Shown: positions 1,305 to 52,753 of the stretch, piece after piece
Layout of the letters: each line of letters begins with the position of its first letter
How positions within the stretch are numbered: the first letter of the stretch is position 1
DNA from: a virus
Reading direction: 5' to 3' (one strand)
Length of the DNA stretch: 52,840 nt
Virus record (IMG/VR): IMGVR_UViG_3300000291_000011
The notes under the pieces: generated by a model
What the model saw: the letters and a program-made list of their open reading frames with translations, nothing else
What the model was told of the DNA's origin: nothing
The model's database searches: none
Translations under genes and position numbers: made by a program

Positions 1305-1326
1305 ACAGGAAGGAGGAGCAAGTACC

Positions 1327-2629: not shown

Positions 2630-2681
2630 AAGCGTGATATAATATAAAATGTAAAAAGCAGAAAGAGAGGCGCGAGCAGTA

Positions 2682-6255: not shown

Positions 6256-6663
6256 ATGCCAACGGGACAGGAAACAAAACAGTATCCGCACGGGAAACAT
6301 CCAAACAGCCTTGCGAATCTTAAAAAGGGAAAACGCTTCGGGAATGGCGAGGGTAATACGCTGAACGCACGAGAAGAAAACCGAAAGTCCGTCGCAGTTC
6401 GGAGCGGGAACAAGACATTGCGTGAATTTGCGATTGATTTTGCAGATAAGCCGATGGGAAACGGCAAAACCTTCAAGGAGGCGTACATCATGCGCCTTGC
6501 AAAAATGGCTGCCGATGGAAACCTTGCTGCTATGCAGTATTTTGCAAAACTCATCGGGGAAGACCCCGGCGACGTTGTAACCGTCAAAGCGCCGACGCTT
6601 TCAGAGGACGCGAAAGCAGACATTGACAAGTTGCTGAAAGAGACGCGGGGAGAAGTAAAATGA
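6256..6663 (+). CDS. terS: Terminase small subunit
   Basis: 135 aa directly upstream of and overlapping terL; HPNSLANLKKGKRF and basic N-terminus are typical of phage small terminases. Confidence 0.7.
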   Translation: MPTGQETKQYPHGKHPNSLANLKKGKRFGNGEGNTLNAREENRKSVAVRSGNKTLREFAIDFADKPMGNGKTFKEAYIMRLAKMAADGNLAAMQYFAKLIGEDPGDVVTVKAPTLSEDAKADIDKLLKETRGEVK

Positions 6664-7931
6664 CGACGCTGACGCGGGATGAAGTGTGGAACATCTGGCG
6701 ATACCATCCCGCCGCCGTCGGAAGAATGTGCGGATTCCGTGATTTAACGGACGAACTTCACGGACGCTGGATGCAGCACATCATCTTCGGAGCGGACGAT
6801 TACACGCTCCAAGCACACCGCCTTTCCTATAAATCTTCCTGCCTTTCCGTCGCGCTTGCAATGTGGTGCGTTCTAAATCACGGCAAAAACGCGATTTTCA
6901 TGCGGAAAACCGACAGCGACGTTGTGGAGAGTATCGCACAGGCGAAAAAGGTATTCGCTAACGAGGCTTTTTGCTACATGGCGCAAATCCTCATGCAGCA
7001 GGACGTGACGCTGCTGAAATCAGGCGGCAACTGCATGACGGTGAGCGTGTACGATTCGCCGCGTGGCGCTGACCAGCTCATCGGCATCGGCTGCGGTTCG
7101 TCCATGACGGGCAAGCACGCAGATTTGATAGTATGCGATGACGTTGTAAACCTCAACGACCGCATAAGCCGCGCAGAACGAGAGCGCACCAAGGGCGTTA
7201 TACAGGAGCTGCGAAATATTGTCACCCGCGACGGGCGAATCGTATTCATAGGCACACCGTGGCACATCGAGGACGCGTTCACGCTGGTTGCGCCGCCGGA
7301 GAAGCACGACTGCTACACGACCGGGTTGATTGCGCCGGAGAAGCTGGAAGAGCTGCGGAAGTCCATGTCACCGTCACTTTTTGCCGCGAACTACGAGTTG
7401 CGCCACATTGCCGCCGAAAATGCGCTGTTCGATACGCCGCCGACGTTCACGCCGGAAGCGGAAAAGCTGCGGGACGGCATCGCGCACGTTGATGCTGCAT
7501 ACGGAGGCGAGGACTACACCGCGCTGACGTGCGCCAAGAGGGACGGCGACACGCTGTACTTGTACGGACGTTTGTGGCGAAAGCACGTTGACACGCTGAT
7601 GGAAGCACTGCAATCGGAGACGGAGCGCCTAATGTGCGCCCCGATTTACTGTGAAACAAACGGCGACAAGGGATATTTGGCGCGGGAATTGCGCCGCCGC
7701 AATATGGCAGTACGCGCATACCCGGAGAAGATGAACAAGTACCTGAAAATCAGCACATACCTCAAAAAGTGGTGGGGGAATATCGTGTTTTTGGAAGGCA
7801 CAGACAGGGACTATATCGCGCAAATTATGGACTACACCGAGGACGCGGAACATGACGACGCGCCGGACAGCGCCGCGTGTTGCTGCCGGATTCTCGACAG
7901 AAACGGCGCGAGTTTGTATGTTGGGGGGTGA
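6660..7931 (+). CDS. terL: Terminase large subunit
   Basis: Walker-A-like AHRLSYKSS, Walker B LIVCDDV, coupling motif GTPWH; C-terminal nuclease acidic residues (HVDAAYGGED, YCETNGDKG, DDAPDS). Confidence 0.9.
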   Translation: MTTLTRDEVWNIWRYHPAAVGRMCGFRDLTDELHGRWMQHIIFGADDYTLQAHRLSYKSSCLSVALAMWCVLNHGKNAIFMRKTDSDVVESIAQAKKVFANEAFCYMAQILMQQDVTLLKSGGNCMTVSVYDSPRGADQLIGIGCGSSMTGKHADLIVCDDVVNLNDRISRAERERTKGVIQELRNIVTRDGRIVFIGTPWHIEDAFTLVAPPEKHDCYTTGLIAPEKLEELRKSMSPSLFAANYELRHIAAENALFDTPPTFTPEAEKLRDGIAHVDAAYGGEDYTALTCAKRDGDTLYLYGRLWRKHVDTLMEALQSETERLMCAPIYCETNGDKGYLARELRRRNMAVRAYPEKMNKYLKISTYLKKWWGNIVFLEGTDRDYIAQIMDYTEDAEHDDAPDSAACCCRILDRNGASLYVGG

Positions 7932-7936
7932 TACAG

Positions 7937-9409
7937 ATGTTCACAAAAATCACATGGCAAGACTGGCAGAACGAGCCGGACAAGGCAAAGGCGACGCTGG
8001 CGGTTATTGGTGCATACAAGCACAGCGAGGACTTTGATAAAGCTGGAATCGCGCAAAGATACTATGAAGCGCAGAACGATACAGTTTCCGCGAAAGTCGT
8101 GCTGCGAGCCACAACATCAGAATCGGAACAAAAAACCGCCGACGGGAAAACAGTCAAGAAGAAGGGGACGGCGACGGAAGCAGTCCCCGGACAGCGCATT
8201 TACAGCGACTTTTTCCGCCGATTTACCATGCAACAGGCGAATTATCTGCTTGGAAACGGCGTTGAGCTGGAAGACGACGCAATGAAGGGCAAACTGGGCA
8301 TCGGGTTCGACACGACACTTGCGAAAATCGGACTGTATTCGCTTGTCCATGGCGTGTGTTGGGGATACTGGAATCTCGACCACGTTGAGATTCTGCGTGC
8401 GTACACGGACAAAAACAGCGGATTTGTGGCGCTGCTGGACGAGCTGACGGGCGAACCGATGGTTGGGGTGCAGTTCTGGCAGATTGGCGACGACAAACCG
8501 CTGATGGCGCGTGTATTTGAGCCGGACGGCGTGACGGTTTACAAAATGCGCGAGAATGCCTCTGATTTGGAGGTTGCGCAGGAAAAACGCGCCTACAAGC
8601 GGACATACGCACGAGACATCACAGGCGAGCGCCTTGTGTCCGAAGAGAATTACAGCGCATTGCCAATTGTGCCGCTGTACGCGAACGACAAGAAGCAGAC
8701 GGAACTGACGCTTGCAATCCGTTCCAAAATCGACTTGTACGACATCGTGCTTTCCGACTTTGGAAACAATCTGGAAAAGGCGAACGATGTTTACTGGGTG
8801 CTGAACAACTTCGGGGGCAACTTTGACGAGGTTGCGCTGATGCTTGAACAGATTCACCGCCTGAAAGCAATCGCGAACATTTCGGACGGCACGTCATCCA
8901 GCACAGTAACGCCGGAGACGTTTGAAGTGCCGTATGCCGCGCGCCAAACCGCGCTGGAACTGCTGGAACGGCAGCTATACCGCGATTATATGGCGCTGGA
9001 TGTGTCGGAGCTGACGGGCGGAAGCCTGACGAACGTTGCAATTAGGGCAAGCATGGCGAATCTGGACTTGAAAGCAAACGCCTACGAATGGCAGTGCTTT
9101 GATTTCGTACAGAAACTGCTGCGAATTCTGGGAATTGAGACGGAGACAATCCGCTTCAAGCGGCAGACGATTGCAAACGAAAGCGAAATCATCCAGAACA
9201 TCTACACCGCGCAAGGCGATTTGGACAAGGAGACGCGCCTGAAACTCAATCCGATGATTCTGCCGGAGGAAATCGACGACATCATGAAGCGCGGGGAGGA
9301 AGAATCGCTTTTGGGCATCCGCATGGCGCAACAGGCAATGCAGAAGACAGGCGAGGAGGAAGAAGATGCTGTATCTGATGGTGATTCTTCAAGTTCTGGC
9401 GGCGAATAA
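7937..9409 (+). CDS. Portal protein (SPP1 gp6-like)
   Basis: 490 aa after terL, ATG 7937 after GGGGGGTGA; size, position and acidic C-terminus typical of portals. Confidence 0.8.
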   Translation: MFTKITWQDWQNEPDKAKATLAVIGAYKHSEDFDKAGIAQRYYEAQNDTVSAKVVLRATTSESEQKTADGKTVKKKGTATEAVPGQRIYSDFFRRFTMQQANYLLGNGVELEDDAMKGKLGIGFDTTLAKIGLYSLVHGVCWGYWNLDHVEILRAYTDKNSGFVALLDELTGEPMVGVQFWQIGDDKPLMARVFEPDGVTVYKMRENASDLEVAQEKRAYKRTYARDITGERLVSEENYSALPIVPLYANDKKQTELTLAIRSKIDLYDIVLSDFGNNLEKANDVYWVLNNFGGNFDEVALMLEQIHRLKAIANISDGTSSSTVTPETFEVPYAARQTALELLERQLYRDYMALDVSELTGGSLTNVAIRASMANLDLKANAYEWQCFDFVQKLLRILGIETETIRFKRQTIANESEIIQNIYTAQGDLDKETRLKLNPMILPEEIDDIMKRGEEESLLGIRMAQQAMQKTGEEEEDAVSDGDSSSSGGE

Positions 9410-24990: not shown

Positions 24991-25242
24991 ATGAGCCGCG
25001 AAGTCGTATGGACAAAAGCGGTTGTAGATGCTTTTGTGGATGAAGCCTGTTTGTCCGATGAAGAGGAGCTGATTATCAGGTCGCGGGCGAAAGGCTGGAC
25101 ACGAACAAAGCAGTCGATACAGTACAACATGAGCATTCGCAAGATTGACTATATTATACACACGCTTAAAACCAAGTACGACGAAGCGCAGAAATACTCC
25201 GAGATTTTACCAAAGCGGAAAACAAAGAAAGCCGGGACGTAA
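24991..25242 (+). CDS. Small sigma-70 region-4-like HTH protein
   Basis: 83 aa; LSDEEELIIRSRAKGWTRTKQSIQYNMSIRKIDYII resembles region 4.2 / LuxR-type HTH. Confidence 0.5.
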   Translation: MSREVVWTKAVVDAFVDEACLSDEEELIIRSRAKGWTRTKQSIQYNMSIRKIDYIIHTLKTKYDEAQKYSEILPKRKTKKAGT

Positions 25243-25259
25243 TGTCCCGGTCTTTTTTT
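25231..25259 (+). terminator. Rho-independent terminator between convergent gene blocks
   Basis: CCGGGAC-gtaat-GTCCCGG followed by TCTTTTTTT; separates plus-strand lysis genes from the minus-strand operon. Confidence 0.8.
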
Positions 25260-25267
25260 GTTGTGCA

Positions 25268-25861
25268 CTATTCTTGCGCCTGACGCTTGCACTCAACGTC
25301 AAGTTCCGGATACACCCCCGCGATTTTCGCAAGGGTTTCAGTTTTTAGGCGATGGTACAACTCTTCCTTGCCGACAAGCCCGAACAGGTCAACTAATTTG
25401 TCATCATATTCGCAGAGGTTGTGGCGGATGAAATTAACCATCCAGCGTTCAAGCGTCTCGGTATTCGGGGACAATATATCCACATTGCCGTGTTCCAAAT
25501 ACCATTCTTGTTTTGCGTTCAGCGTCGCCTCTTCCAGGACGGGCATATCCCAGCGCGTAACGTGGATGGAAGCAATGAGGTCGTCGGCAATGGCTTCGGC
25601 GTTCTTGCGCTTCGTTTCGACGGCTTTTGCGGATGCCGCCTTCCGCGCGGCTGCTTTTGCCGCCATCGTCTGAAATTCCTGCGTCGCCATGACGGAACGC
25701 ACATCATCCTCGCGCCACAGCTTCATGGGCGCGGAGGACGCATAATGTGGATTCCGCTTAAGGATAGGCGGCGGCAGCAGCTTGTCTATCATGGACTTTG
25801 TGAAGCCCATAGACAATACGCCGCTTTGTGAAATGAGCTGTTCTTTTTGCTTTTCCGGCAT
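25268..25861 (-). CDS. Hypothetical protein (last gene of the cassette-C operon)
   Basis: 197-aa ORF; A/K-rich central linker; no family recognised with confidence. Confidence 0.7.
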   Translation of the reverse strand: MPEKQKEQLISQSGVLSMGFTKSMIDKLLPPPILKRNPHYASSAPMKLWREDDVRSVMATQEFQTMAAKAAARKAASAKAVETKRKNAEAIADDLIASIHVTRWDMPVLEEATLNAKQEWYLEHGNVDILSPNTETLERWMVNFIRHNLCEYDDKLVDLFGLVGKEELYHRLKTETLAKIAGVYPELDVECKRQAQE

Positions 25862-25877
25862 GGTGTCCTCTTTATAT

Positions 25878-26597
25878 CTACTTTGTAATATGTTCCTTTG
25901 ATTTGCGTTTCCTATAATTTTCTCTGGCTCTGCGATTTGCTTCTTCGCGTTGCTCCGCAGTCATCGCTTCATAGCGTGCTTTCTGTGCCGCACGTTTCTG
26001 TTCAGCACGCGACTTGTCATACTCTTTGAGATACTCCTTTTTAGCAGCAAGGCGGCATTCTTCTGAACAATATTCTCCATTTCCGATGGCAGAAAATGTC
26101 TTTTTGCAGTACTTGCAAATCTTCTCTTTTGGAACAACTCGTTTTCGCTCTCTAATAATATTCCCGGCGACCGCGTCATTGCGCTTTTCCGTCATTGCGG
26201 CACGTCGCTGTTCTCGGATTGCTTCTGCAGTAGCACTTTCCTTACATGCTGGGCAGTACTTCTGCTTCCCGCCAAAGACAATATAATCTTTCCCGCATCG
26301 CGCGCACTTATCCGTGCTTCCAAGCGGTCTTCTTGCGCCGCTTCGCCTGTAAATTGCGTTATGCAGCCGATTCGCTGCGTCCTGACATTCTTCACAGCGT
26401 GTGCACTTTGTCGGACGGGTCACAACTTTTCCGCAGTCCGGGCAAGCAAATGTATGCACCATTTCTGGATTCCCACTTTGAGCACCAGTCCCGACGCGCT
26501 GGCGACGTTTCTCGCTTATTTTGTAGCACCCTTCGCTGCAATAAATCCGCCGCCCGTCGGGAACGCGCCCACCACATATTGGGCAAGTCTTATCCAA
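25878..26597 (-). CDS. Multi-zinc-ribbon protein with basic R/K/E/Y-rich C-terminal helix
   Basis: 239 aa with at least five CxxC pairs (CPICG, CPDCG, CTRCEEC, CARCG..CPAC, CKYC..CSEEC); C-terminal KKEYLKEYDKSRAEQKRAAQKARYE.. Confidence 0.7.
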   Translation of the reverse strand: MDKTCPICGGRVPDGRRIYCSEGCYKISEKRRQRVGTGAQSGNPEMVHTFACPDCGKVVTRPTKCTRCEECQDAANRLHNAIYRRSGARRPLGSTDKCARCGKDYIVFGGKQKYCPACKESATAEAIREQRRAAMTEKRNDAVAGNIIRERKRVVPKEKICKYCKKTFSAIGNGEYCSEECRLAAKKEYLKEYDKSRAEQKRAAQKARYEAMTAEQREEANRRARENYRKRKSKEHITK

Positions 26598-26615
26598 CTC
26601 GACACCCCCTGCCGA

Positions 26616-27032
26616 TTATCTAATAACCGCAACGACCTCTGCATCGCACATGATAATCTCCTGCTCGTCCTCGCCAATATGGCTATTGTCTCCATCGCAG
26701 CGCATCAGGTACAGGTGCTCATTATAATACACCTTGTTAATGCGCAACGCCCGCGCGATATTCTTGAGCTGTTTTTCACGCGAATTTGCGATAACAATTT
26801 GCGTTGCACAGACGCCATCAAGTTCCTCATCGCTCATCTCTCCGTCGTACCAATTGTACGAGTTGGGGATGCTATCTCCAACACAGAACTCCCGGTCATC
26901 GTTGCGAAGACCCCAGTCGTAAAAATTCAAGCATTCATCTTCCTTTGCCTTTTCCATCTCCGCAAGAATTTTTTCCGCCGTAGCTTCGACGTCCATGTTA
27001 TCTGCAATCTCCATGATTTCCTTGCAATCCAT
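26616..27032 (-). CDS. Strongly acidic hypothetical protein, first gene behind cassette C
   Basis: 138 aa, many D/E residues; ATG at the cassette RBS. Confidence 0.7.
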   Translation of the reverse strand: MDCKEIMEIADNMDVEATAEKILAEMEKAKEDECLNFYDWGLRNDDREFCVGDSIPNSYNWYDGEMSDEELDGVCATQIVIANSREKQLKNIARALRINKVYYNEHLYLMRCDGDNSHIGEDEQEIIMCDAEVVAVIR

Positions 27033-27150
27033 ACGTTACCTCTTTCCGTCCGGGGCTCTGTTTTGTACCGCCCCTTGACATAATTTATTATAGCACAAGT
27101 TGTGTAACTTGTCAATAGTTTTTTAAGATTTTTCGCAAGTTTTTTGCGTT
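27033..27150 (-). promoter_or_regulatory. Promoter/operator/leader cassette copy C
   Basis: Minus strand: TTGACA (27115-27110), 17-nt spacer with ACAAGTT-ACAC-AACTTGT, TATAAT (27092-27087), hairpin 27080-27047, RBS GAAAGAGG, ATG 27032. Confidence 0.75.
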
Positions 27151-27296
27151 CTTTCCGCAAGCCACTGCGATAGGGCAAGGCGGACAACCGCCGAATCACT
27201 TAGCCCAATTCGCTGCCCAATCGCCTTAATTTGCTCATTCTGCTCGTGCGTCACAATGACGTTCTTAACAATCCGATTTCCATCTTTTTTCAGCAT
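27123..27296 (-). CDS. Ribbon-helix-helix DNA-binding protein, RHH-2
   Basis: ATG 27296 after AGGAGGAC; KNVIVTHEQNEQIKAIGQRIGLSDSAVVRLALSQWL fits strand-helix-helix; last gene before cassette C. Confidence 0.55.
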   Translation of the reverse strand: MLKKDGNRIVKNVIVTHEQNEQIKAIGQRIGLSDSAVVRLALSQWLAERTQKTCEKS

Positions 27297-27310
27297 TTTT
27301 TGTCCTCCTA

Positions 27311-28624
27311 TCATTTAAGCAGATTATCAATTGCTGTTGTCGTCCCCGTCCCGCTGAAATAATGGACGGAAATGCCGCAACCGCGCGCAACGTCGATGAC
27401 GGCGTAAAACTCGGTATGCGACATATACGCCGCCTGAATCCATAATTCCGACGCGCTGCGGATGACGCTTTCCGGGCAGGTCGTGCCGTGCGGATAGGCG
27501 CGGATGGAAGGGAAACGCTCGGTCAGGCGGCGCGCCCATACAGGATGCCCGCCGACGATGACAACACCGTCAGGAATGATTCTGGGGCGTTGCGTGTCGC
27601 CGGGGGCTTCCTGCGTGTCTTCCTGTGCGCTGCGCCAGAGCGCGTCGCGAAGGGCGGTCAGCTCCTGCGCATCCGCTTCATGTGTTTGGAGGGCGGCGAA
27701 TGATTTCTGCGCGTCTTTCTCCTGCTGACGGATGGCAGCTTCCAGCTCGGCAATGCGCTTTTCTGCGGCGGCGGCGCGCTGCTCGGCTTTTTCCTGCGCG
27801 ATTCGCGCTGCTTCCAAGGCGGCAGCGTCGCCGCGAAGGATTTTGTTGATGCAAAATGCCTTGTCCTTTTGGATTGCACGGGCAACCATCAGCGACGCGG
27901 CATTGAGCGCCGTTTTTTCGGGTGTGTCGGAAAGAATGATAGCGGCATCGTCCGCATTGATGCGGATGTCCGCGGTGTAATCCGAGACATCAATGCCAGC
28001 GCCATCGTACATGAGCGCGAACTCGTCAATCGCTTCCACGGCAAAACGGTCGTACAGGTCGCCGAAGCCAGCGACAGGCAGCTTTCCCAAATGTTTTTGC
28101 AGGACTTTTTTATCGTCCGAGGTCGTCTGCTCTTTTCGGATGCTTTTGATGTTAGACTGCAACAAAAGCCAGTCCGAGAGGTCGGCGAAGCTGTCATTGC
28201 TGGCGACTTTTCTTCCGGAAACAAGAATCTGGAAGAATGCAAGCATCGTGCGATAAAGCGCAGTATCGAGATTTTTGTCGAAAATCAGGCAGGAATCAAG
28301 CGAAATTTCCGCGCCCTGCGGGGATGACTTAATGGCATCATGCGTTTTATCGTATGTTTTGCGGTCAACCGCGCGGAGAAGTCCGCGAATGGTGGCTTCT
28401 TCTGCGGCGCGGAGAATGCCCAGCGCGTGAGCGGAAACAATCTGCTGTTCCGCGCGTCCGGCAGTAATTGCGACAGACGACTTGCCAGCGCCGCGCATGG
28501 TGTCCGCATAGTATTTCGCTGGTGACAGCGCATAAAACCGCTCCACCGCGTCGGGGTTGAGGAATGCCATTGCGCGCGCTACGATTGGCGCAAGGTCAAC
28601 GCTGACGCGCCCTGCGTTCTTCAT
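27311..28624 (-). CDS. Large hypothetical protein: unknown N-domain, coiled coil, DUF2325-like C-terminal domain
   Basis: 437 aa; RBS AAAGGAG; coiled coil AAALEAARIAQEKAEQRAAAAEKRIAELEAAIRQQEKD; C-terminal VVIVGGHP..ASELWIQAAYMSHTEFYAVIDVARGCGISVHYFSGTG resembles DUF2325. Confidence 0.7.
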   Translation of the reverse strand: MKNAGRVSVDLAPIVARAMAFLNPDAVERFYALSPAKYYADTMRGAGKSSVAITAGRAEQQIVSAHALGILRAAEEATIRGLLRAVDRKTYDKTHDAIKSSPQGAEISLDSCLIFDKNLDTALYRTMLAFFQILVSGRKVASNDSFADLSDWLLLQSNIKSIRKEQTTSDDKKVLQKHLGKLPVAGFGDLYDRFAVEAIDEFALMYDGAGIDVSDYTADIRINADDAAIILSDTPEKTALNAASLMVARAIQKDKAFCINKILRGDAAALEAARIAQEKAEQRAAAAEKRIAELEAAIRQQEKDAQKSFAALQTHEADAQELTALRDALWRSAQEDTQEAPGDTQRPRIIPDGVVIVGGHPVWARRLTERFPSIRAYPHGTTCPESVIRSASELWIQAAYMSHTEFYAVIDVARGCGISVHYFSGTGTTTAIDNLLK

Positions 28625-28720
28625 TGTGCTGCTCCTTTCATCGCCTAAAATGATTTCGACGCGTTGCGGTTGCTTCCGCGTCCTCCAATCGCGCTTTGCA
28701 GACCATGCGTCGAACTCGTC

Positions 28721-29197
28721 TTAGCGGGCTGTAAGCGTATCGATGATGTCCCTCGCCTCGGTGGCGGTTGAGACGACATAGGCAGCATATAGCCACTTGT
28801 ACGGAAACTTGTCAAGGTTTTGGCGAATAAATTTCTCTATGGTCACACCTGCTTTTTCCGCCGCCGCCGCAATCGCGGCTTGCTTGTCGGGGTCGTCGCG
28901 GGTAGCGATAGCATCCGCGACTGTCTTTTCGTGCGACGCAACAAATTTCGCACGCAGGTCTGTGGCGTACTCGACTTGCTTGTCGCTCACGCCGTGAATT
29001 GTCGGAAGGCTCAATGCCGCCGCCGCTTCGCGCTGCTGCTTGCGCTGCTGCTTGCGGTAGCAGTCGGCGCAAAGAAGGGGATGAGCTTCCGCCCATTCCT
29101 TTTTGCTGTCCGCGTCCCGGCGATTGAAGCCGTCAATGCGGCGTTCAACGGTAGCGCCGCAATCAGGGCATTTGTAGGTGGCAATTGCTTTTGCCAT
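28721..29197 (-). CDS. Zinc-ribbon protein, first gene behind cassette D
   Basis: 158 aa from ATG 29197; YKCPDCG..LLCADCY; then a helical domain (GVSDKQVEYATDLRAKF..). Confidence 0.7.
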   Translation of the reverse strand: MAKAIATYKCPDCGATVERRIDGFNRRDADSKKEWAEAHPLLCADCYRKQQRKQQREAAAALSLPTIHGVSDKQVEYATDLRAKFVASHEKTVADAIATRDDPDKQAAIAAAAEKAGVTIEKFIRQNLDKFPYKWLYAAYVVSTATEARDIIDTLTAR

Positions 29198-29335
29198 GGT
29201 CATTACCTCTTTCCGTCCGGGGCTCTGTTTTGTACCGCCCCTTGACACTATGTATTATAGCACGAGTTGTGCAACTTGTCAACACTTTTTCAAGATTTTT
29301 CGCAAGTTTTTTTGCAACTTTCTCGCGTTTTGTTT
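29198..29335 (-). promoter_or_regulatory. Promoter/operator/leader cassette copy D
   Basis: Minus strand: TTGACA (29282-29277), 17-nt spacer with ACAAGTT-GCAC-AACTCGT, TATAAT (29259-29254), hairpin 29247-29214, RBS GAAAGAGG; AAGTTGCA boxes at 29277-29270 and 29320-29312. Confidence 0.75.
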
Positions 29336-29388
29336 GCACTCCACAACCGCCCGAATCGCCTATACTATTATTAGTAGGAGGTGGTGCG

Positions 29389-29766
29389 GTGTATATCCAC
29401 TACAACCCTAATCCGCGCGGCTTGCGTGTCGGGGATTGCGCTGTCCGTGCAGCATCAAAAGCGGCAGGGGAGACGTGGGGCAGTACCTATGCGGCACTCT
29501 GTGCGCTGGGCTATGACTGCGGAGATATGCCTAACGCAAATCACGTCTGGGGACGATACTTGCATGAGCGCGGATTCTCGCGCCACGCCCTGCCGGATAC
29601 TTGTCCAATCTGCTACACCGTCGCGGACTTCTGCCGTGAGCATCCGCGCGGGGTGTACGTCCTCGGAATCGGCGACCACGTTGTGTGTGCCGTAGACGGC
29701 GACTGGTACGACGCATGGGATAGCGGCGCGGAAATACCTGCATACTATTGGGAGAGGGAGGGTTGA
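29389..29766 (+). CDS. Conserved hypothetical protein with a Cys/His/Asp pattern suggestive of a papain-like fold
   Basis: GTG 29389 eight nt after AGGAGG; YIHYNPNPRGLRVGDCAVRA .. GDHVVCAV .. DAWDSG. Confidence 0.55.
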   Translation: MYIHYNPNPRGLRVGDCAVRAASKAAGETWGSTYAALCALGYDCGDMPNANHVWGRYLHERGFSRHALPDTCPICYTVADFCREHPRGVYVLGIGDHVVCAVDGDWYDAWDSGAEIPAYYWEREG

Positions 29767-29769
29767 TGT

Positions 29770-30210
29770 ATGGCGTATGGTTATCCACAATATTATCCAC
29801 AGATTCCGTATTATAACGCGCAGCAGACGGCAATGCCCGACCAACTTGCGCAGCTTCGAGCGGCACAGCAGCCGATGATGCAGCAGCCATCGCAGCCGTC
29901 GAGCAACGGACTGATTTGGGTGCAGGGTGAAGCCGGAGCGAAGAGCTACCTTGTCGCCAATGGTTCGAGCGTGCTGCTGATGGACAGCGAGAAACAGACG
30001 TTTTACATCAAGTCGGCGGACGCGGCAGGAATGCCGTCCATGCGCACATTTGACTACACGGAGCGCAACGCATCCGTAAAGCCATCCAGCAGCGCGCAGG
30101 ATGCTCCGGAGTATGTAACGCGGGAAGAACTCAACACGCTGACGAAACGCCTTGAAGCGCTGGAAGGACGCAAGAAGAAGGGGGTAACGCAGGATGAACC
30201 CACTATTTAA
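29770..30210 (+). CDS. Hypothetical protein with Y/P/Q-rich N-terminus
   Basis: 146 aa; MAYGYPQYYPQIPYYNAQQ..; then LIWVQGEAGAKSYLVANGSSVLLMD. Confidence 0.65.
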   Translation: MAYGYPQYYPQIPYYNAQQTAMPDQLAQLRAAQQPMMQQPSQPSSNGLIWVQGEAGAKSYLVANGSSVLLMDSEKQTFYIKSADAAGMPSMRTFDYTERNASVKPSSSAQDAPEYVTREELNTLTKRLEALEGRKKKGVTQDEPTI

Positions 30211-32558: not shown

Positions 32559-32798
32559 ACCCCCGTTTTGACTACTTTGCACGACGGAAAGAGGGTCAAA
32601 ATTGCGAATCTGGGGATTGCAAAAACCATGTGCGATAACAGCAGATTGAGCAATTACAAGGCATACGCAAGCGCAGAGTAGCGAAGAGAAAACCGCTTTC
32701 GCTTTCTTCCATGGAAAGCAAACAAAATCCGTAAAACTGTTGGATTCTCTATGGTTCTCAGACCATTGCAACGCTGCTGACTACCATTTTGACTACTT
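32559..32798. other. Candidate attP region
   Basis: Non-coding stretch immediately downstream of int; exact 12-bp direct repeat TTTTGACTACTT at 32566-32577 and 32787-32798, extra TGACTAC at 32778; palindrome TTCCATGGAA at 32707-32716. Confidence 0.35.
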
Positions 32799-33842
32799 GG
32801 ACGTAGAAGTCAACATACTTTCGACCCTTCGGATGGCGTTTTCTTCCTTTTTTTTCGTGAGATGTGCATATATCCGCATTATCATCGTCTCATCCTCATG
32901 CCCCATCCAGCGCGCGGCAGTTTTAATGTCAACATCCGCATCATAGAGCATCGTCGCAAAAGTATGTCTGCAATCGTGCTGCCTGATTGCCACAGTTCTC
33001 CCCGCAATTTTTGTTAGATGATTTTGGTAACGCTTCCACGCATCGGTCACAGCGCTGAAAGAAATAATTTTGTTATCTTTCGATATTATCACGCTTCCGT
33101 GTCGCCCTCGCAAGACACCCCGTAACGGCGGAAACAGCGGCACGTCACGAATACCAGCTTTGGTCTTTGGTGCAGTGACAATATAGTCGGAACGTTCGCG
33201 TCGAATCGCCTTTCGGACGTGAATCACACCTTTTTCAAAATCAACGTCATCATCAATATCGAGCGCAAGCGCTTCTCCACGCCTAAGCCCTGCATACACC
33301 ATCACCATCGCGTAAATTCCCATCCTTTCGCTGTCACAAGTATCTCTGATTAGTTTTATTTCCCAATCATCAAGATTACGGTGCGTCCCTACTGCCCCTT
33401 TCTTCCGCCTAACGTTCTCGCAGGGAGAAATTGCAACTATTCCATCATTTTTTGCAGCGCGAAAAACCGCTCTTGTTGATTCGGCTATCTTCCTTAGCGT
33501 CCCTTCTCCGCGGTCGGAAAAAGCGTTATAAAGTCGCTGTATATCCGACGGCGTAATTAGCCTCATCTCCGTCTTTGGCAGGATTGAGGCTATCTGGTTA
33601 AGGCGTGAGACATATGCATCATATACATTTATGGTCACCTCGCTCTTGTACGTCGGCAGCCACTCCGCCGCGTACTCCGCGAACGTATACTTTTCCCGTG
33701 GTTTCCTGCCGTATTTTTCCTGCTTTTTGTACTCTTCACGGGCTGCAAGGGCTTCTGACTGCGTTCGCCCGTAGAACGAGAATCCCTTATATTTACAAAC
33801 ATAACGCCCGTCGGGGCGCTTTTTTAGTGTCTGGCGTGGCAA
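32793..33842 (-). CDS. int: Tyrosine recombinase / phage integrase
   Basis: TTG 33842 eight nt after AAGGAG; ..GLRRGEALAL.. (Arg), HDCRHTFAT (HxxR), RIYAHL (Tyr). Confidence 0.9.
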   Translation of the reverse strand: MPRQTLKKRPDGRYVCKYKGFSFYGRTQSEALAAREEYKKQEKYGRKPREKYTFAEYAAEWLPTYKSEVTINVYDAYVSRLNQIASILPKTEMRLITPSDIQRLYNAFSDRGEGTLRKIAESTRAVFRAAKNDGIVAISPCENVRRKKGAVGTHRNLDDWEIKLIRDTCDSERMGIYAMVMVYAGLRRGEALALDIDDDVDFEKGVIHVRKAIRRERSDYIVTAPKTKAGIRDVPLFPPLRGVLRGRHGSVIISKDNKIISFSAVTDAWKRYQNHLTKIAGRTVAIRQHDCRHTFATMLYDADVDIKTAARWMGHEDETMIMRIYAHLTKKKEENAIRRVESMLTSTSK

Positions 33843-34017
33843 GTGTATCACTCCTTTTCTCTTATTGTGCCGCAAAACGCAGCAAAGTGCCATCGTAAAA
33901 TGTGAACAAATTGAAAACATTTTGCAAATGCACGGAAAATTTTTTATCATATTTCGCTGTGCGTCAGCATATGGTATTGCGGTGGACGGTAAAAAATACG
34001 CGACTGGAGAGGAAAAT

Positions 34018-34146
34018 ATGCCTGTTTTTGATAAAAAGTTTGTTGTTAAAATGCTCGTCGAGAAGGTGAAGGAACTGCCGGATGACCTGCAAGCGGAATT
34101 TTTTTCGTGGCTGGAAAAGAAAATTTCTGCAAAGAAAACGTTATGA
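34018..34146 (+). CDS. Possible 42-aa protein
   Basis: ATG 34018 after GGAGAGG; MPVFDKKFVVKMLVEKVKELPDDLQAEFFSWLEKKISAKKTL. Confidence 0.3.
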   Translation: MPVFDKKFVVKMLVEKVKELPDDLQAEFFSWLEKKISAKKTL

Positions 34147-34185
34147 ATACATAAACAATATGAACTGCGGAGAGCATCGAATCCG

Positions 34186-34258
34186 AAAGCAAACGGAAGC
34201 AAAGCAAAAGCAAAAGAGAGCAAACAAAAGCAAAAGAAAGCAAAGCTAAGCAAAGAAA
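34186..34258. repeat. Purine-strand microsatellite (GCAAA/GCAAAA/GCAAAG)n
   Basis: About 13 consecutive GCAAA-type units. Confidence 0.85.
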
Positions 34259-34435
34259 AGCTATGCTATCATTTGCTATTCTATTTTTCCGGATGCGAAA
34301 GTCAGGAAAGGTAAAACCACGCCCATGAAGGTCAGGGAAAGTCAGAAAATGATGCACTTCATAATTTGCAAAAGCGCCTGAAATACAGTGATTGCAAGGC
34401 TTTGCGCCACGCTGACGCAAAAATCCGCAAAATGC

Positions 34436-34570
34436 GATAGCTATGCTAAAAATAAAATAGCTTAGCTATTAAAAAAATAGCTGAATTATTTTTGCTATTA
34501 AAAAAAATAGCACAGCTAAAAAATAAATAGCAGAATTATTTTTGCTATGCACATTTTTTGTGCTATTTGG
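34436..34570. repeat. A-tract plus ATAGC/GCTAT iteron-like repeat zone
   Basis: A6-8 tracts each followed by TAGC; repeated units such as AAAAAAATAGCTGAATTATTTTTGCTATT and AAAAAATAAATAGCAGAATTATTTTTGCTATG. Confidence 0.8.
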
Positions 34571-35121: not shown

Positions 35122-35150
35122 TTGACAAGCGGGGCAATCTGGCATATAAT
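35122..35150 (+). promoter_or_regulatory. Consensus sigma-70/A promoter pointing into the 3' end of the repressor gene (antisense)
   Basis: TTGACA 35122-35127, 17-nt spacer, TATAAT 35145-35150; bracketed by the 9-bp inverted repeat AATCAGCAG (35107) / CTGCTGATT (35181). No credible ORF downstream. Confidence 0.6.
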
Positions 35151-35285: not shown

Positions 35286-35699
35286 TCACGGTTCTCCCTT
35301 TTCAGCATCCCCCTTGTCCGCCATGCGCTTTAAGCTATCACGTTCCTTGCGCTCCTGCCGCATCCGACGTTCCGCCCTCGCGGTGAGGTACTCAACGTAG
35401 TCCATCGCCTCGCGCACAACGTCATCCGGCGCACCCATCAGCTTGGCGATAATCGCCTCGCAGGTTGCGTCGAGGATAGGGCGGTCAGACGTTCCATGCG
35501 GGTTGTCGGACAGTCCGCAAAGGTAGTCGGTGGTCACGCCGAGCGCTTCGGCGAACTTCACGACGCTGGTAATCTCCGGCGTGATGGTTCCACGCTCATA
35601 GCAAGAATACGTCGCTTGCGACACTCCAACGATGCTTGCCATTTCGGCTTGCGTCTTTTTTTTTGCCTTTCTCGCTTCCTTGAGCCTATCTCCAAGCAT
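35286..35699 (-). CDS. CI-like repressor (XRE-family HTH, no S24 peptidase domain)
   Basis: 137 aa; LKEARKAKKKTQAEMASIVGVSQATYSCYERG; divergent from a cro-like gene. Confidence 0.75.
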   Translation of the reverse strand: MLGDRLKEARKAKKKTQAEMASIVGVSQATYSCYERGTITPEITSVVKFAEALGVTTDYLCGLSDNPHGTSDRPILDATCEAIIAKLMGAPDDVVREAMDYVEYLTARAERRMRQERKERDSLKRMADKGDAEKGEP

Positions 35700-35731: not shown

Positions 35732-35760
35732 TTGACATATATAATCGAGTGTGCTATTAT
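35732..35760 (+). promoter_or_regulatory. Promoter for the cro-like gene (switch 1)
   Basis: TTGACA 35732-35737, 17 nt, TATTAT 35755-35760. Confidence 0.6.
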
Positions 35761-35796
35761 TAGCATTGATAATAAGCACTGATTGGAGGGATGCGG

Positions 35797-35997
35797 ATGC
35801 AGAACCGCGTGCGTGAGTTCCGCGCAAAGAAGGGCTTTACGCAGATGCAGCTTGCGTGCGAAATCGGATGTGAGCAGGGGCTTGTGTCTCTGTATGAGAG
35901 GGGTGTAAATACCCCGTCACTGCATAACGCTCTTCGCCTTGCCCGTGCGCTTGGCACGACGGTCGAAGCCCTTTTCGGGGGTGAGGTCGATGGCTGA
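35797..35997 (+). CDS. Cro-like XRE-family HTH protein
   Basis: 66 aa; REFRAKKGFTQMQLACEIGCEQGLVSLYERG. Confidence 0.75.
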   Translation: MQNRVREFRAKKGFTQMQLACEIGCEQGLVSLYERGVNTPSLHNALRLARALGTTVEALFGGEVDG

Positions 35998-36529
35998 GAA
36001 GCTGCGGCACTTTCTCCACGTCGCCGGGGTTCAAGGAATCAGCGTCGCCGCGCTGTCCGAAAAGTCGGGTATCTCGAAGCCGACTATTTACCGATACGCC
36101 AACGGACAGGGAAGTCCAACTGTTGACGCGATGAAGCGCATTGCGAAAGCCCTCGGATGCACAGTCCGAGAGACGTTCCCGGAGGTTTACGGCGAGAAAG
36201 CGGACGTGCCGACCGTCAACATCACGGACACGCAGCCCATCAGCACGGCAAAGCTGGCGATGCAGTACGGCATGACAACACGCGAGTTCAATCAGGCGCT
36301 GTTCCGCGCTGGCATCCAGATACAGCGCGCCGATGGCTCTTGGGTGGTCGCCGGGGACTTTGCCGACATGGTGACTTACAAGCCCGTCAAAACGGAGAAC
36401 GGCACTGTGCGGCTGTTCGCCATGTGGACGCTGACAGCGCGAAAGGTGATTCAGTCCTTGCTTGAGGAGCAAGGGATAGTTCCGGCAACTGGCGTGAACG
36501 TGGGGTCGTCGGAGCGCCCGACGAGATAG
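35990..36529 (+). CDS. HTH plus KilA-C/ANT-like antirepressor-type protein
   Basis: ATG 35990 overlaps the cro stop; N-terminal ISVAALSEKSGISKPTIYRYANG; C-terminal ISTAKLAMQYGMTTREFNQALFRAGIQ is ANT-like. Confidence 0.6.
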   Translation: MAEKLRHFLHVAGVQGISVAALSEKSGISKPTIYRYANGQGSPTVDAMKRIAKALGCTVRETFPEVYGEKADVPTVNITDTQPISTAKLAMQYGMTTREFNQALFRAGIQIQRADGSWVVAGDFADMVTYKPVKTENGTVRLFAMWTLTARKVIQSLLEEQGIVPATGVNVGSSERPTR

Positions 36530-36714
36530 TCGAGCGACACGCCGTAGAAGTCAGCAATGCGGACAAGTGCCGAAAGCGTCGGTTCGCTGCATCCAGACTT
36601 GTAAAGCTGGTACGCGCGAACAGTAATCCCTGCTGCCTCTGCAATCTGCGCATTGCGATAGTCAAAAAACGTCTGCAAGTCGCAGAGACGAGAGCGAAAG
36701 TCAGACAAAAACAA
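36451..36714 (-). CDS. XRE-family HTH regulator (switch 2, leftward)
   Basis: 87 aa; NAQIAEAAGITVRAYQLYKSG; its 3' end overlaps the convergent 35990-36529 gene by 79 nt. Confidence 0.7.
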   Translation of the reverse strand: MFLSDFRSRLCDLQTFFDYRNAQIAEAAGITVRAYQLYKSGCSEPTLSALVRIADFYGVSLDYLVGRSDDPTFTPVAGTIPCSSSKD

Positions 36715-36735: not shown

Positions 36736-36764
36736 TTGACGTGAAGAATAATTCGTGCTATAAT
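36736..36764 (+). promoter_or_regulatory. Promoter (switch 2, rightward)
   Basis: TTGACG 36736-36741, 17 nt, TATAAT 36759-36764. Confidence 0.6.
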
Positions 36765-36797: not shown

Positions 36798-36989
36798 ATG
36801 CAGAATGTTCAGCTTGTCAATGCGCGGAAAGCCTCGAATATGACGCAAGTCGAGGTTGCAAGCCGCTGCGGGGTTACAGTCCGCGCATATCAGCACTACG
36901 AAGCAGGACAGCAAACCCCCAGCGTTACGACAGCGATTCGCATTGCCGACGCGCTGGGGGTGGAAGATGTCAGGGCGCTATTTGGATAG
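36798..36989 (+). CDS. XRE-family HTH protein (switch 2, rightward)
   Basis: ATG 36798 after GGAAGGAGTGGAG; ARKASNMTQVEVASRCGVTVRAYQHYEAG. Confidence 0.7.
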   Translation: MQNVQLVNARKASNMTQVEVASRCGVTVRAYQHYEAGQQTPSVTTAIRIADALGVEDVRALFG

Positions 36990-38941: not shown

Positions 38942-39268
38942 TCACTTGCGCGGGTTCGCCCGGACGTATCGAGCGTACCGCATGACTTCTTCCCGGTCTG
39001 ACGGAGCAAGCGCGGAAATCTCCAAGTAGAGCGTGTCCGTTTCTTTGGGAGACGGCGCACCGTCGCAACCGGCAAGATAATCGTAGGAAACGCCGAAGAG
39101 GTCGGCAATTTTTCCGAATACCTCAACGCTGGGCGAACGCTGGCACTTCTCCAACTGCGTCACGGACGCGCCGGAGATACCAAGCGCATCACCAAGCGCC
39201 GCAACGGAAAGCCCTGCTTGCTTGCGCAACGCCAAAAGGCGGGAAGCAAATTTTTCTCGCGAAAACAT
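38942..39268 (-). CDS. XRE-family HTH regulator (switch 3, leftward)
   Basis: ATG 39268; LRKQAGLSVAALGDALGISGASVTQLEKC. Confidence 0.7.
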   Translation of the reverse strand: MFSREKFASRLLALRKQAGLSVAALGDALGISGASVTQLEKCQRSPSVEVFGKIADLFGVSYDYLAGCDGAPSPKETDTLYLEISALAPSDREEVMRYARYVRANPRK

Positions 39269-39278
39269 TGAAAACCTC

Positions 39279-39307
39279 TTGACATCAACGCAAAGTTGAT
39301 GTATAAT
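39279..39307 (+). promoter_or_regulatory. Promoter with in-spacer palindrome (switch 3, rightward)
   Basis: TTGACA 39279-39284, 17-nt spacer containing CATCAAC-GCAAA-GTTGATG, TATAAT 39302-39307; an extra GTTGATG half-site lies downstream. Confidence 0.65.
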
Positions 39308-39360
39308 GTAAACAAGCAAGCGGAAAACACTTGCCGAGAGTTGATGAGAAGGGAGTAACA

Positions 39361-39552
39361 ATGAGAGCCGCATTAAAGCGGGTCAGAGCCTTGCAAGGCT
39401 GGTCGCAAACCGATGTTGCAAAGCAACTCGGAATCACGGTACAGGCTTACAGCCTAATCGAGACTGGGAAGCGTGACCCGTCCTATCCTGTGTTGGTAGC
39501 GCTGGAGGACGTATTTCACACTTCCCATCGAGTACTACTGAGAGAGGAGTGA
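39361..39552 (+). CDS. Cro-like XRE-family HTH protein (switch 3)
   Basis: 63 aa; RALQGWSQTDVAKQLGITVQAYSLIETG. Confidence 0.7.
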   Translation: MRAALKRVRALQGWSQTDVAKQLGITVQAYSLIETGKRDPSYPVLVALEDVFHTSHRVLLREE

Positions 39553-44150: not shown

Positions 44151-44451
44151 ACGTGGGGAAGCCCGTCGCGAATATCAGCGGGCTTACTATCAAGCGCACA
44201 AAGAAGAGCTTCAAAAACGTCATCGAGAATATTACTGGAAAAACAAAGAAAATTCGCGGGCTTACTATCAAGCGCACAAGGAAGAGGTGCAAAAACGGAA
44301 TCGCGAATATTACTGGAAAAACAAAGAAAATTCGCGGAGATATAATCGAAAGCATTACTTAGCGCATAGTGAAAAAATCTGTAAAGCCGCACGTGAACGT
44401 TACTACAAACTTAAAGCAGAACGCATGGAGAAAGGGGCGGAAAAACTGTGA
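44143..44451 (+). CDS. Basic repeat protein (2 x 26-aa exact-type repeats plus a degenerate third)
   Basis: RAYYQAHKEELQKRHREYYWKNKENS / RAYYQAHKEEVQKRNREYYWKNKENS encoded by a 78-bp tandem repeat at 44179-44334. Confidence 0.65.
   Translation: MDERGEARREYQRAYYQAHKEELQKRHREYYWKNKENSRAYYQAHKEEVQKRNREYYWKNKENSRRYNRKHYLAHSEKICKAARERYYKLKAERMEKGAEKL
44179..44334 (+). repeat. 78-bp tandem direct repeat (2 copies) inside a CDS
   Basis: Unit starts at 44179 and 44257; few mismatches. Confidence 0.85.
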
Positions 44452-49729: not shown

Positions 49730-50004
49730 ATGAGTACAAAAACCGTGTGCTGTCCCTTGCAGAGCTTGCGGTAAGCGCAGAAACGCTCGTATGGATTGAA
49801 GATAACAACGGGGACGACGAGCCGTGCGTCCGTGCGCGAATGTTAACGTACTGGGAACCTAAAAGCCATCGCATATATTTCGACGGCGGACGCACATGGT
49901 ACGCCGATTATACATACGGCGAGACGTGGCGCTGCTGGTTGAGGAATCCGACGGAGCAGCAGATGAGGGACACGCCGTGGGAGGAAAGCAAAAATGAAGT
50001 ATGA
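49726..50004 (+). CDS. WRCW-motif domain protein (paralog 3)
   Basis: NRVLSLAELA..YGETWRCWLRNPTEQQMRDTPWE. Confidence 0.6.
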   Translation: MNEYKNRVLSLAELAVSAETLVWIEDNNGDDEPCVRARMLTYWEPKSHRIYFDGGRTWYADYTYGETWRCWLRNPTEQQMRDTPWEESKNEV

Positions 50005-50557
50005 GTTCACTGGCGAAGTGAAATACATCGGCCGTAAGATATTGCATCGAATCCGCGCAGTGCGAGACATCCCGGAATACGAGATTAAAAGCGGCGACAT
50101 GGGAGGATGGCTCGAAACAGAGAAAAATCTTTCACATAACGGCTCAGCGTGGGTGACGGATTCTGCGGTGGTGATGGACGCGGCGTTCGTGACGGGAGAT
50201 GCGCGTGTGATGGATTCTGCGCGGGTGACGGGTTTGCCGCTGGTGGCTGGAAATGCGTTGGTGATGGAAAATGCGCGTGTAATGGGCGTGGCGCGGGTGA
50301 CGGGAAATGCGCATATAATGAACTCGGCTGATTACATCACCATCAATACAATCAAAAACTGTGACGATACAACCACCTTTTATCGCGGCGCAGATGGGGG
50401 AATATATGTCGCCTGCGGACGCTTCAGCGGCTCAATTGACGACTTCGCCGCAAAAGTCAAGCAAGTCCATGCCGGGACAAAGCACGAAAGGACGTACCTG
50501 TTGGCAATCGAACTGGCAAAGGCGCAGATTGCGACGGAGGAGGAAAATGATGGCTGA
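49994..50557 (+). CDS. Beta-helix repeat protein
   Basis: Repeats of about 6 residues: AWVTDSAVVMDAAFVTGDARVMDSARVTGLPLVAGNALVMENARVMGVARVTGNAHIMN. Confidence 0.6.
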   Translation: MKYEFTGEVKYIGRKILHRIRAVRDIPEYEIKSGDMGGWLETEKNLSHNGSAWVTDSAVVMDAAFVTGDARVMDSARVTGLPLVAGNALVMENARVMGVARVTGNAHIMNSADYITINTIKNCDDTTTFYRGADGGIYVACGRFSGSIDDFAAKVKQVHAGTKHERTYLLAIELAKAQIATEEENDG

Positions 50558-52723: not shown

Positions 52724-52753
52724 TCGCGCATCGAAAGGTGCGCGATTTTCTTT
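52724..52753 (+). terminator. Rho-independent terminator
   Basis: TCGCGCA-tcgaaagg-TGCGCGA followed by TTTTCTTT. Confidence 0.65.

Follow-up and report, generated by a model that had tools for sequence, protein, structure and literature searches.

Promoter Cassettes and Operons at the Locus

The DNA analyzed here, the IMG/VR virus record IMGVR_UViG_3300000291_000011, is a stretch of 52,840 nucleotides (the window in the following) and represents, judged on its gene content, a temperate Bacillota-type siphophage. The present study deals with four homologous promoter cassettes of this phage, A and B on the plus strand and D and C on the minus strand, and with two genes for small ribbon-helix-helix (RHH) proteins, RHH-1 and RHH-2. 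Each of these genes occupies the last position of an operon headed by one cassette of a pair, and each protein is predicted to repress the promoters of both cassettes of its pair.

All cassettes share the same build, namely an A-rich, UP-like stretch, a TTGACA box, a 17-bp spacer, a TGnTATAAT box (12/12 consensus), an 18-bp palindrome, and a leader. The promoters are perfect matches to the sigma-70-type consensus with a TG-extended -10 box and are located at 27115-27087 (-), 29282-29254 (-), 1008-1036 (+), and 52786-52814 (+), the last one running on into bases 1-28 of the window. In total, eight promoter matches with at most one mismatch were counted in the window, compared to 0.07 expected by chance. 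The palindrome reaches in all four cassettes from the last 3 bp of the -35 box (ACA) to the position immediately preceding the TG of the extended -10, so that a putative operator overlaps the core promoter in each case. The first 54 bases of the window equal its last 54 (1-54 being identical to 52787-52840), which indicates a circular assembly of about 52,786 bp with the repeat as an assembly artefact; therefore, cassette A straddles the window ends.

On the minus strand, cassette D (29198-29312) comprises the UP-like A-rich stretch (29283-29312), the -35 box TTGACA (29282-29277), the palindrome ACAAGTTGCACAACTCGT (29279-29262), TGc followed by the -10 box TATAAT (29259-29254), and the leader (29253-29198) with the ribosome-binding site (RBS) GAAAGAGGTAA. 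Cassette C (27033-27145), on the same strand, consists of a UP-like stretch, the -35 box (27115-27110), the palindrome ACAAGTTACACAACTTGT (27112-27095), the -10 box (27092-27087), and the leader (27086-27033). On the plus strand, cassette A starts with its upstream part at 52751-52840 (UP-like stretch; -35 box, 52786-52791; palindrome CATATACGGCGGTATATG, 52790-52807; -10 box, 52809-52814; start of the leader) and continues at 1-84 (palindrome, 4-21; -10 box, 23-28; leader with RBS, 29-84). Cassette B (973-1094) carries a UP-like stretch, the -35 box (1008-1013), the same palindrome (1012-1029), the -10 box (1031-1036), and the leader (1037-1094). The identity between cassettes C and D amounts to 93% over 110 nt and that between A and B to 93-94%. 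The palindromes of A and B are both perfect and identical to each other (CATATAC-GGCG-GTATATG), that of C has no mismatch (ACAAGTT-ACAC-AACTTGT), and that of D has one arm mismatch (ACAAGTT-GCAC-AACTCGT). Further copies of either type with at most two mismatches were found nowhere else in the window.

The first gene behind cassette D encodes a protein of 158 amino acids (aa) with N-terminal zinc-ribbon-like CxxC pairs (28721-29197, -; phrog_16123) and is kept in this position in related phages. It is followed by a gene for a 437-aa protein (27311-28624, -), regarded as variable cargo because relatives (L154-L159) carry genes for 96 aa and 277 aa instead, and by the RHH-2 gene (27123-27296, -; 57 aa), the product of which is the predicted repressor at the C and D palindromes. 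Cassette C precedes genes on the minus strand for a 138-aa protein (26616-27032; phrog_18666), a 239-aa multi-zinc-ribbon protein (25878-26597), and a 197-aa protein (25268-25861), none of them being an RHH protein. A bidirectional terminator-like hairpin at 25231-25251 ends operon C as well as the convergent lysis operon on the plus strand.

Cassette A is followed on the plus strand by a cargo gene for 196 aa (85-675), the slot of which is occupied by other genes in relatives (141, 128, 68, 60, or 56 aa), and by RHH-1 (700-924), a 74-aa open reading frame (ORF) whose product is predicted to repress at the A and B palindromes. An intrinsic terminator with a 10-bp stem and a T run (about 931-962, +) lies between the RHH-1 stop codon at 924 and cassette B; this stretch is conserved in relatives, and RHH and cassette modules recombine there. 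The first genes behind cassette B (from 1095 to 4148, +) begin with that of a 69-aa protein and include those of an ArdC-N-domain protein (102 aa; 1327-1635, +; 27.6 bits vs. a cut-off of 22.6), a 298-aa protein (phrog_19458), and a fusion of ParB-N with an N6/N4 DNA methyltransferase (2814-4148, +) ahead of the terminase genes. The cargo proteins of operons D, C, and A gave no informative match in Pfam, PHROGs, NCBIfam, or PADLOC.

Regarding the promoters PA to PD of the four cassettes, RHH-2 comes third in the series of genes starting at PD and RHH-1 second in that starting at PA, and neither a promoter nor a terminator was predicted between PD and RHH-2 or between PA and RHH-1. Based on the predicted terminators, operon A is insulated from operon B, unlike operon D from operon C: no terminator was found between RHH-2 and cassette C, the RHH-2 stop codon (27123) being 7 nt from the -35 box of C, and PD transcripts should therefore read through into operon C.

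An earlier interpretation made from the letters of the window (the sequence-only reading) had described four cassettes, a palindrome type specific to each pair, an RHH gene as the last gene before the second cassette on both strands, and a terminator between RHH-1 and cassette B. The four cassettes and the ORFs were found in the places given there, A and B share the CATATAC type and C and D the ACAAGTT type, and the terminator was located at 931-954. Its statement that cassette B drives a long accessory operon holds for the first genes of the string, but the string continues into the terminase and portal genes; since no plus-strand terminator was predicted before TerL and the portal gene, it is not purely accessory.

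A Leader Common to All Cassettes

A leader of about 55 nt, which the sequence-only reading had passed over, is common to all four cassettes and to all operator types. Its consensus is GTCA.G.GGGCGGTACAAAA...GCCCC.GAC.GAAAGAGGTAA, and the motif GGCGGTACAAAA occurs five times in the window, compared to 0.39 expected occurrences. A 5' hairpin is possible at about 29247-29215 in D, at about 27080-27048 in C, and also in A; in such a hairpin, GUC..GGGGC would pair with GCCCC..GAC around an A-rich loop of 12-18 nt; the 3' end of the leader represents a strong Shine-Dalgarno sequence. From related phages, 78 leader variants were collected, 69 of which remained distinct once trimmed to the hairpin region; nearly all fold alike, with energies between -7.6 and -17.4 kcal/mol, into a two-part hairpin located a few nt from the predicted 5' end, and some C-to-T changes keep G-U pairs. 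Searches of Rfam remained without a match, both for the entire window at the gathering threshold and for the region 26900-29450 at E ≤ 1. In the most economical reading, the leader would serve as a 5' stabiliser combined with a strong Shine-Dalgarno sequence, and an effect of a 5' untranslated region comparable to this is described for the Reg576 regulon (PMC6294495). Processive antitermination by the leader was considered and dismissed, as a strong terminator closes operon A immediately in front of cassette B.

In three loci found in other contigs (L040:2949-, L087:268-, and L178), the leader is cut right after GTCAGGAGGGC and fused to ATGAGCC..., which places the start codon within the former stem. 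These variants may be leaderless or short-leader derivatives.

The Two RHH Proteins

RHH-2 is an RHH protein according to its modelled fold. The AlphaFold2 model, with a predicted local distance difference test (pLDDT) value of 83, contains a strand (8-15) followed by two helices (17-30 and 34-55), and the top Foldseek matches in the PDB were the CopG entries 1ea4, 1b01, and 2cpg, with template modeling (TM) scores of 0.71-0.75 on the target. PutA-RHH, MazE6, NikA, VapB, AmrZ, and FitA were found further down in a list consisting mostly of RHH proteins. RHH-2 itself had no match in Pfam or NCBIfam. Its homologue encoded at L205 in an unrelated phage (35% identity, BLASTP 7e-13) reached 29.1 bits for Pfam RHH_1, with a gathering cut-off of 20.5, and the homologue at L012 reached 21.9 bits for RHH_3 (cut-off 21.6). 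The last codons of RHH-2 (…KTCEKS*) overlap the UP-like A-tract region of cassette C (27123-27145). In some relatives (homologues P0003, P0025, and P0046), the stop codon is lost and the ORF enters the promoter, resulting in products of 67-79 aa.

RHH-1 belongs to the alpha allele, the beta-strand of which reads KTVRFDVR, and its true start is likely the ATG at 706 (MRKEYY...), as in most relatives. Its assignment to the RHH proteins is weak but coherent: RHH-1 matched a PHROG family annotated as transcriptional regulator (E = 2.4e-4), and the profile of its family recovered AvtR (E = 0.001) from the PDB, followed by VapB26, PutA, ParG, NikA, and CopG, all of them being RHH proteins. Direct sequence searches of RHH-1 and RHH-2 against the PDB returned noise or marginal matches only. 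Profile-profile comparison between the two families was not significant (probability 2.9%), and the proteins are therefore treated as separate RHH lineages. Neither of them matched Pfam Arc at E ≤ 0.01 to 0.1, and hence membership of the Arc/Mnt family is not assigned. The residues differing between specificity classes cluster in and beside the N-terminal strand, a position that indirectly supports DNA contact via paired beta-strands.

Repressor and Palindrome Types Co-Vary across Relatives

To obtain relatives, IMG/VR was scanned with the leader, which is neutral as to palindrome and RHH type. The scan yielded 115 cassettes of the same architecture on 87 stretches, which belong to about 60 contigs with lengths of 28-58 kb, and four combinations of RHH and palindrome types emerged. 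The alpha allele of RHH-1 (KTVRFDVR) was found with palindrome F1 (CATATAC-N4-GTATATG) at the driving promoter in 24 of 25 cases and at the next downstream promoter in all 34. For the beta allele (KITIEVQ) and palindrome F3 (CATATTGCCGGGAATATG), the respective values were 5 of 7 and 8 of 12. RHH-2a (KN[VI][IV][VI]TH) was accompanied without exception by F2 (ACAAGTT-N4-AAC(T/C)TGT), at the driving (14/14) and the next downstream promoter (13/13), and RHH-2b (KCII[LV]T[KR]) by F4 (ACAAGGTATATACCTTGT / ACAAAGTATATATCTTGT; 10/10 at both positions). Since the RHH gene is separated from its driving cassette by variable cargo of 530 to 2160 nt, its association with this upstream promoter goes beyond tight linkage.

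Among RHH-2 family members, the residues present at positions 12 (N/C/S) and 17 (H/R,K) change in step with the inner operator bases TTGCGCAA / GGTATATACC / TTATATAA. The residues peculiar to F4-type RHH-2 proteins are N12C and H17R/K, located in or beside the strand, and a homologue with S12/K17 pairs with the TTATATAA centre. The change N12C/H17R is predicted to retarget RHH-2 from ACAAGTTGCGCAACTTGT to ACAAGGTATATACCTTGT. Furthermore, the operator in front of operons lacking an RHH gene of their own (B, C, and the third cassette of L010) is that of the RHH protein encoded next to them, which agrees with regulation in trans.

The pairings also recur where the leader is absent. A scan with the F1 promoter alone detected the exact promoter with its palindrome, TTGACATATAC-N4-GTATATGnTATAAT, in 22 unrelated low-GC viral loci without the leader, and in each of them an RHH protein with the strand motif K[YH][VA]RF is encoded 200-400 nt downstream. 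Behind the promoter, a gene for a hydrophobic peptide of 34-43 aa comes first and the RHH gene second, both on the same strand, with the exceptions given below. RHH-1 alpha and these proteins have K-x-V-R-F in common at an overall identity of only about 24%. For F2, the leaderless locus L205 provides a recurrence, ACAAGTTATATAACTTGT being paired there with an RHH-2 homologue. The claim of the sequence-only reading that each RHH protein recognises the palindrome of its own pair is thus strongly backed, at the level of sequence, by co-variation in about 60 contigs and by recurrence in unrelated elements.

At the leaderless loci L162-L195 (e.g., L162:5455-6003, L180:6726-6958, and L195), the peptide is of type-I-toxin or holin-like character and the RHH protein has 60-75 aa (KYVRFPLDL...). 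In L180, L181, and L186, the RHH gene comes first and an IS30-like transposase gene next; L194 is incomplete. These operons look like a separate, possibly undescribed small operon family that has one RHH/operator specificity in common with the phage.

Such peptide-RHH operons are among the observations which would suit a reading of the RHH proteins as type II antitoxins, with the palindromes as autoregulatory operators of toxin-antitoxin (TA) modules and the upstream cargo as toxin. In addition, the 75%-identical homologue P0046 is named 'antitoxin' in one source, and the Foldseek and PDB matches include the RHH antitoxins VapB, MazE6, TacA, and FitA. However, RHH-2 with its 57 aa is essentially a DNA-binding domain without a C-terminal toxin-binding extension, its neighbour gene is variable (437 aa here, 277 aa in L154-L159, and 121 aa in L161), and the partner of RHH-1 ranges from 56 to 196 aa. 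Moreover, searches of Pfam, NCBIfam, and PADLOC assigned none of the cargo proteins to a toxin family, and the same operator is also present on a second operon lacking an RHH gene. A type II TA module was rejected on account of the variable neighbour, the missing toxin family, and the missing extension, and this explanation is considered very improbable.

Proposed Regulation of the Four Promoters

The results are best summarized by a two-repressor, four-promoter regulon, one half of which is the minus-strand locus of cassettes D and C, and in which RHH-2 would act on PD and PC and RHH-1 on PA and PB to limit a burst of expression. Binding, repression, stoichiometry, timing, and the role of the leader are deduced, and we consider this model as a whole to be probable. 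Each cassette would constitute a portable expression unit composed of a near-perfect promoter for the host sigma-A, an operator, and a leader. Upon entry of the naked phage DNA, host RNA polymerase would fire all four promoters. Accumulating RHH-2 would then shut off its own promoter PD and the sister promoter PC, and RHH-1 would do the same for PA and PB. Two RHH dimers may occupy the two 7-bp arms, the centres of which are 11 bp apart, i.e., one helical turn, on the same face of the DNA, and the bound protein would exclude RNA polymerase. Repression by occlusion of RNA polymerase is suggested by the palindrome filling the spacer of a perfect promoter, and a burst followed by shut-off by the position of the repressor gene at the end of the first operon. 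After the burst, a low, autoregulated RHH level would persist, also in the lysogen, and operons B and C would rely on the neighbouring RHH protein. The feed-forward control that the sequence-only reading had assumed has to be replaced, because in this layout a single repressor would negatively control its own promoter and co-repress a second one. The gene order behind cassette B, with the ArdC-N protein and the ParB-methyltransferase, fits a programme of 'establishment/anti-restriction first'.

Several observations weigh against this model. Regarding the pairing, two loci (L004 and L053) are arranged as F3 -> beta -> F1 -> beta -> F1, i.e., KITIEVQ stands beside CATATAC operators, and in a third one (L079), arranged as F3 -> alpha -> F1, a CATATTG cassette drives KTVRFDVR. 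All exceptions are confined to these three loci and concern the alpha and beta alleles of RHH-1 and the palindromes F1 and F3. The F1/F3 specificity may be loose, or the recombinants may be misregulated; partial cross-recognition is possible since F1 and F3 share the outer CATAT...ATATG. Many near-identical relatives originate from one metagenome, and hence the counts given above overstate the number of independent events. Likewise, RHH genes are located 7-90 bp from the downstream cassette, so that the downstream association could be due to linkage alone. With respect to RHH-1, its Pfam RHH_1 match (E = 0.0076, 16.6 bits) remained under the cut-off of 20.5, and its AlphaFold2 model was poor (pLDDT 58, strand region unmodelled) and thus inadequate for a fold search. 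For the leader, the hairpin z-scores of the four window copies amounted to only -1.8 to -2.8, and RNAalifold kept the outer 4-bp stem alone among 54 unique leaders, without any compensatory pair, for which reason the leader is not claimed as a proven RNA element. Finally, the phage encodes at least nine helix-turn-helix (HTH) proteins of the XRE type, which could also act on the cassette promoters.

The latter point leads to another explanation, in which the palindromes are operators of a different regulator, either a CI-like/XRE HTH protein encoded at 35-41 kb or a sigma-70-region-4-like protein, and the RHH proteins are linked passengers, e.g., antitoxin-like or relaxosome-like proteins. In its favour, the phage has an integrase besides the XRE proteins, perfect consensus promoters would have to be kept silent in a prophage, an HTH dimer would likewise fit on an 18-bp palindrome whose arm centres are 11 bp apart, and the loci L004, L053, and L079 show that a mismatch between RHH and operator is tolerated. 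Nevertheless, neither palindrome occurs in the immunity region or elsewhere in the window, the promoters of the immunity region bear different inverted repeats, and the operator type shows no relation to the length variant (long or short) of the sigma-like protein. In contrast, RHH and operator track each other across variable cargo, and their pairings recur in elements without this immunity region. Control by another regulator is therefore regarded as improbable.

The mismatched loci bear on recombination as well. In the alignment, the breakpoint of L004 fell within the conserved terminator/UP region that separates the RHH gene from the cassette, and one RHH-1 protein (P0065) is a chimera combining the alpha strand with a beta-type helix 2. 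Together, they indicate recombination both inside the repressor gene and at the conserved terminator. It might be argued that the cassettes are mainly recombination linkers for the swapping of cargo, as known from lambdoid boundaries, with the palindromes as incidental parts of a strong constitutive promoter and the real regulation exerted via the leader (by RNA or another DNA-binding factor): the leader is common to all operator types, the cargo is highly mosaic, the L004 breakpoint falls within conserved flanking sequence, and chimeric RHH-1 exists. If the spacer were incidental, however, it would not be expected to read as a perfect 7-4-7 palindrome in each of four versions that go with particular RHH strand variants, and the operators are also found together with RHH genes at sites lacking the leader. 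A role in recombination could exist alongside regulation without taking its place, and the linker explanation taken by itself appears quite improbable.

Beyond the two-repressor regulon, an RHH-based second immunity layer, separate from CI/Cro and silencing superinfecting relatives in trans, was contemplated and is judged rather doubtful. If it existed, RHH proteins of a lysogen would silence the immediate-early anti-restriction/establishment operons of relatives with the same operator. This would drive diversification into at least four orthogonal specificities, swapped at the conserved leader and terminator sequences, and the leader would be a portable expression or stability element or the target of a further regulator. 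In this view, the combination of K-x-V-R-F and CATATAC-N4-GTATATG, which the phage has in common with peptide-RHH operons of unrelated mobile elements, would hint at cross-talk between elements.

Should the regulon itself hold true, it would represent a natural set of at least four orthogonal pairs of small repressors and operators on one sigma-A promoter/leader scaffold. The visible correlations between amino acids and bases would suit the study of DNA reading by RHH beta-strands, the pairs would be usable as compact regulatory parts for Gram-positive bacteria, and the cargo genes (158, 437, 138, 239, 197, and 196 aa) would become candidates for early, anti-defence, or host-takeover functions.

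Further Features of the Phage Genome

The window has a G+C content of 53% and encodes TerL (6660-7931, +), with about 48% identity to Enterococcus phiFL2A and Lactococcus P335-type phages, the portal protein (7877-9409, +), an SH3-domain endolysin together with holin-like genes (23.6-25.0 kb), a tyrosine integrase (within the ORF 32793-34253, -), and about nine XRE-type HTH genes (35.2-41.4 kb). A search of the INPHARED database by blastn with the region 25000-30000 revealed no nucleotide-level match, and matching the leader pattern to 185k species genomes resulted in 66 matches with no real cassette among them. No tRNA genes were found in the window. Directly upstream of cassette A lies the gene for the sigma-70-region-4-like protein (52269-52718, +), a PHROG 'transcriptional activator' and likely a late-gene activator. 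It occurs in forms of 131 aa and 149 aa among relatives, differing by an 18-aa indel, and the form was not correlated with the operator type.

A fifth perfect consensus promoter is located in the immunity region (39279-39307, +) and bears an in-spacer palindrome of the 7-5-7 type (CATCAAC-GCAAA-GTTGATG) without the shared leader. A Cro-like XRE gene (39361-39552) follows downstream of this promoter, and another XRE gene (38942-39373, -) is oriented divergently from it. Other near-consensus promoters (35122-35150, 35732-35760, and 36736-36764) are placed between divergent XRE HTH genes (35286-35699, -; 35791-35997, +; 36451-36714, -; 36798-36989, +), and this arrangement at 35-37 kb appears to represent several stacked CI/Cro-like switches. 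An AT-rich array of AAATAGCT.AGCTAT-type repeats (34430-34548) separates the integrase gene from the first repressor-like gene and is a candidate attP or origin region. Furthermore, the gene at 49994-50557 contains an 18-nt periodic repeat (50147-50304), and a tandem duplication of 78 nt with 88% identity is present at 44170-44325.

Comparison with Known RHH-Controlled Systems

The nearest counterparts of the present system are Reg576 of plasmid p576, Arc/Pant of phage P22, and CopG. Among known RHH repressors, Arc of phage P22 is co-transcribed with genes it shuts off and limits early expression. Its operator of about 21 bp consists of two subsites, is bound cooperatively by two dimers, lies between the -35 and -10 boxes of the strong promoter Pant, and also serves the divergent promoter Pmnt; a second RHH protein, Mnt, acts during lysogeny. 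Details on Arc are also given in PMC2724298 and PMC6294495. In the phage studied here, the arms, centred 11 bp apart, would likewise suit two dimers on one face of the DNA. In contrast, arc stands at the head of its operon and the RHH genes described here at the end of theirs, and P22 immI has neither a duplicated cassette nor a shared leader. In the omega (pSM19035) and ParG-type systems, one RHH protein represses several promoters including its own via short repeated subsites. These are heptad arrays of variable number and orientation, and the systems are coupled to partition ATPases and copy control, neither of which was found in the phage window.

CopG, the best structural match of RHH-2, is a minimal RHH protein which is co-transcribed with its target in pMV158 and blocks the access of RNA polymerase to its own promoter Pcr (PMC2724298). 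The operator is centred on the -35 region of this single promoter, and the system controls plasmid copy number via repB (PMC2724298); unlike the phage, it has no cargo operons and no second promoter.

Reg576 of the Bacillus pumilus conjugative plasmid p576 is an RHH protein that autoregulates its expression and represses several sigma-A-type promoters with a TGn-extended -10 box (PMC6294495; Val-Calvo et al. 2018). Its targets are clustered genes, mostly of unknown function, and an ArdC-type anti-restriction gene; two dimers bind per operator, expression after DNA entry is transient and 'zygotic-induction-like', and an inverted repeat in the 5' untranslated region raises the expression of one operon (PMC6294495). 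The string of cassette B resembles this system, as it leads with ArdC-N and ParB-methyltransferase, the gene class under transient control by Reg576. If the model holds true, 'zygotic-induction-like' burst control of the Reg576 kind would extend to temperate phages. However, the Reg576 operator consists of direct TTATCCC heptamers with 2-bp spacing, mostly upstream of the -35 box, whereas the phage features an inverted 7-4-7 arrangement inside the spacer. Moreover, p576 is a plasmid with one repressor, whereas the phage genome contains two orthogonal pairs and the phage family at least four or five, and the phage repressor gene is last in a cargo operon, unlike that of Reg576. Reg576 and the phage RHH proteins have no detectable sequence relationship and are likened by description only.

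Hence, the regulatory logic is known in principle, as Arc, CopG, omega, and Reg576 work alike. Distinct features of the system described here are the 7-4-7 operator placed wholly in the spacer, the repressor gene in last position, two orthogonal pairs per genome, the shared leader, and the modular exchange of cargo and repressor-operator units.

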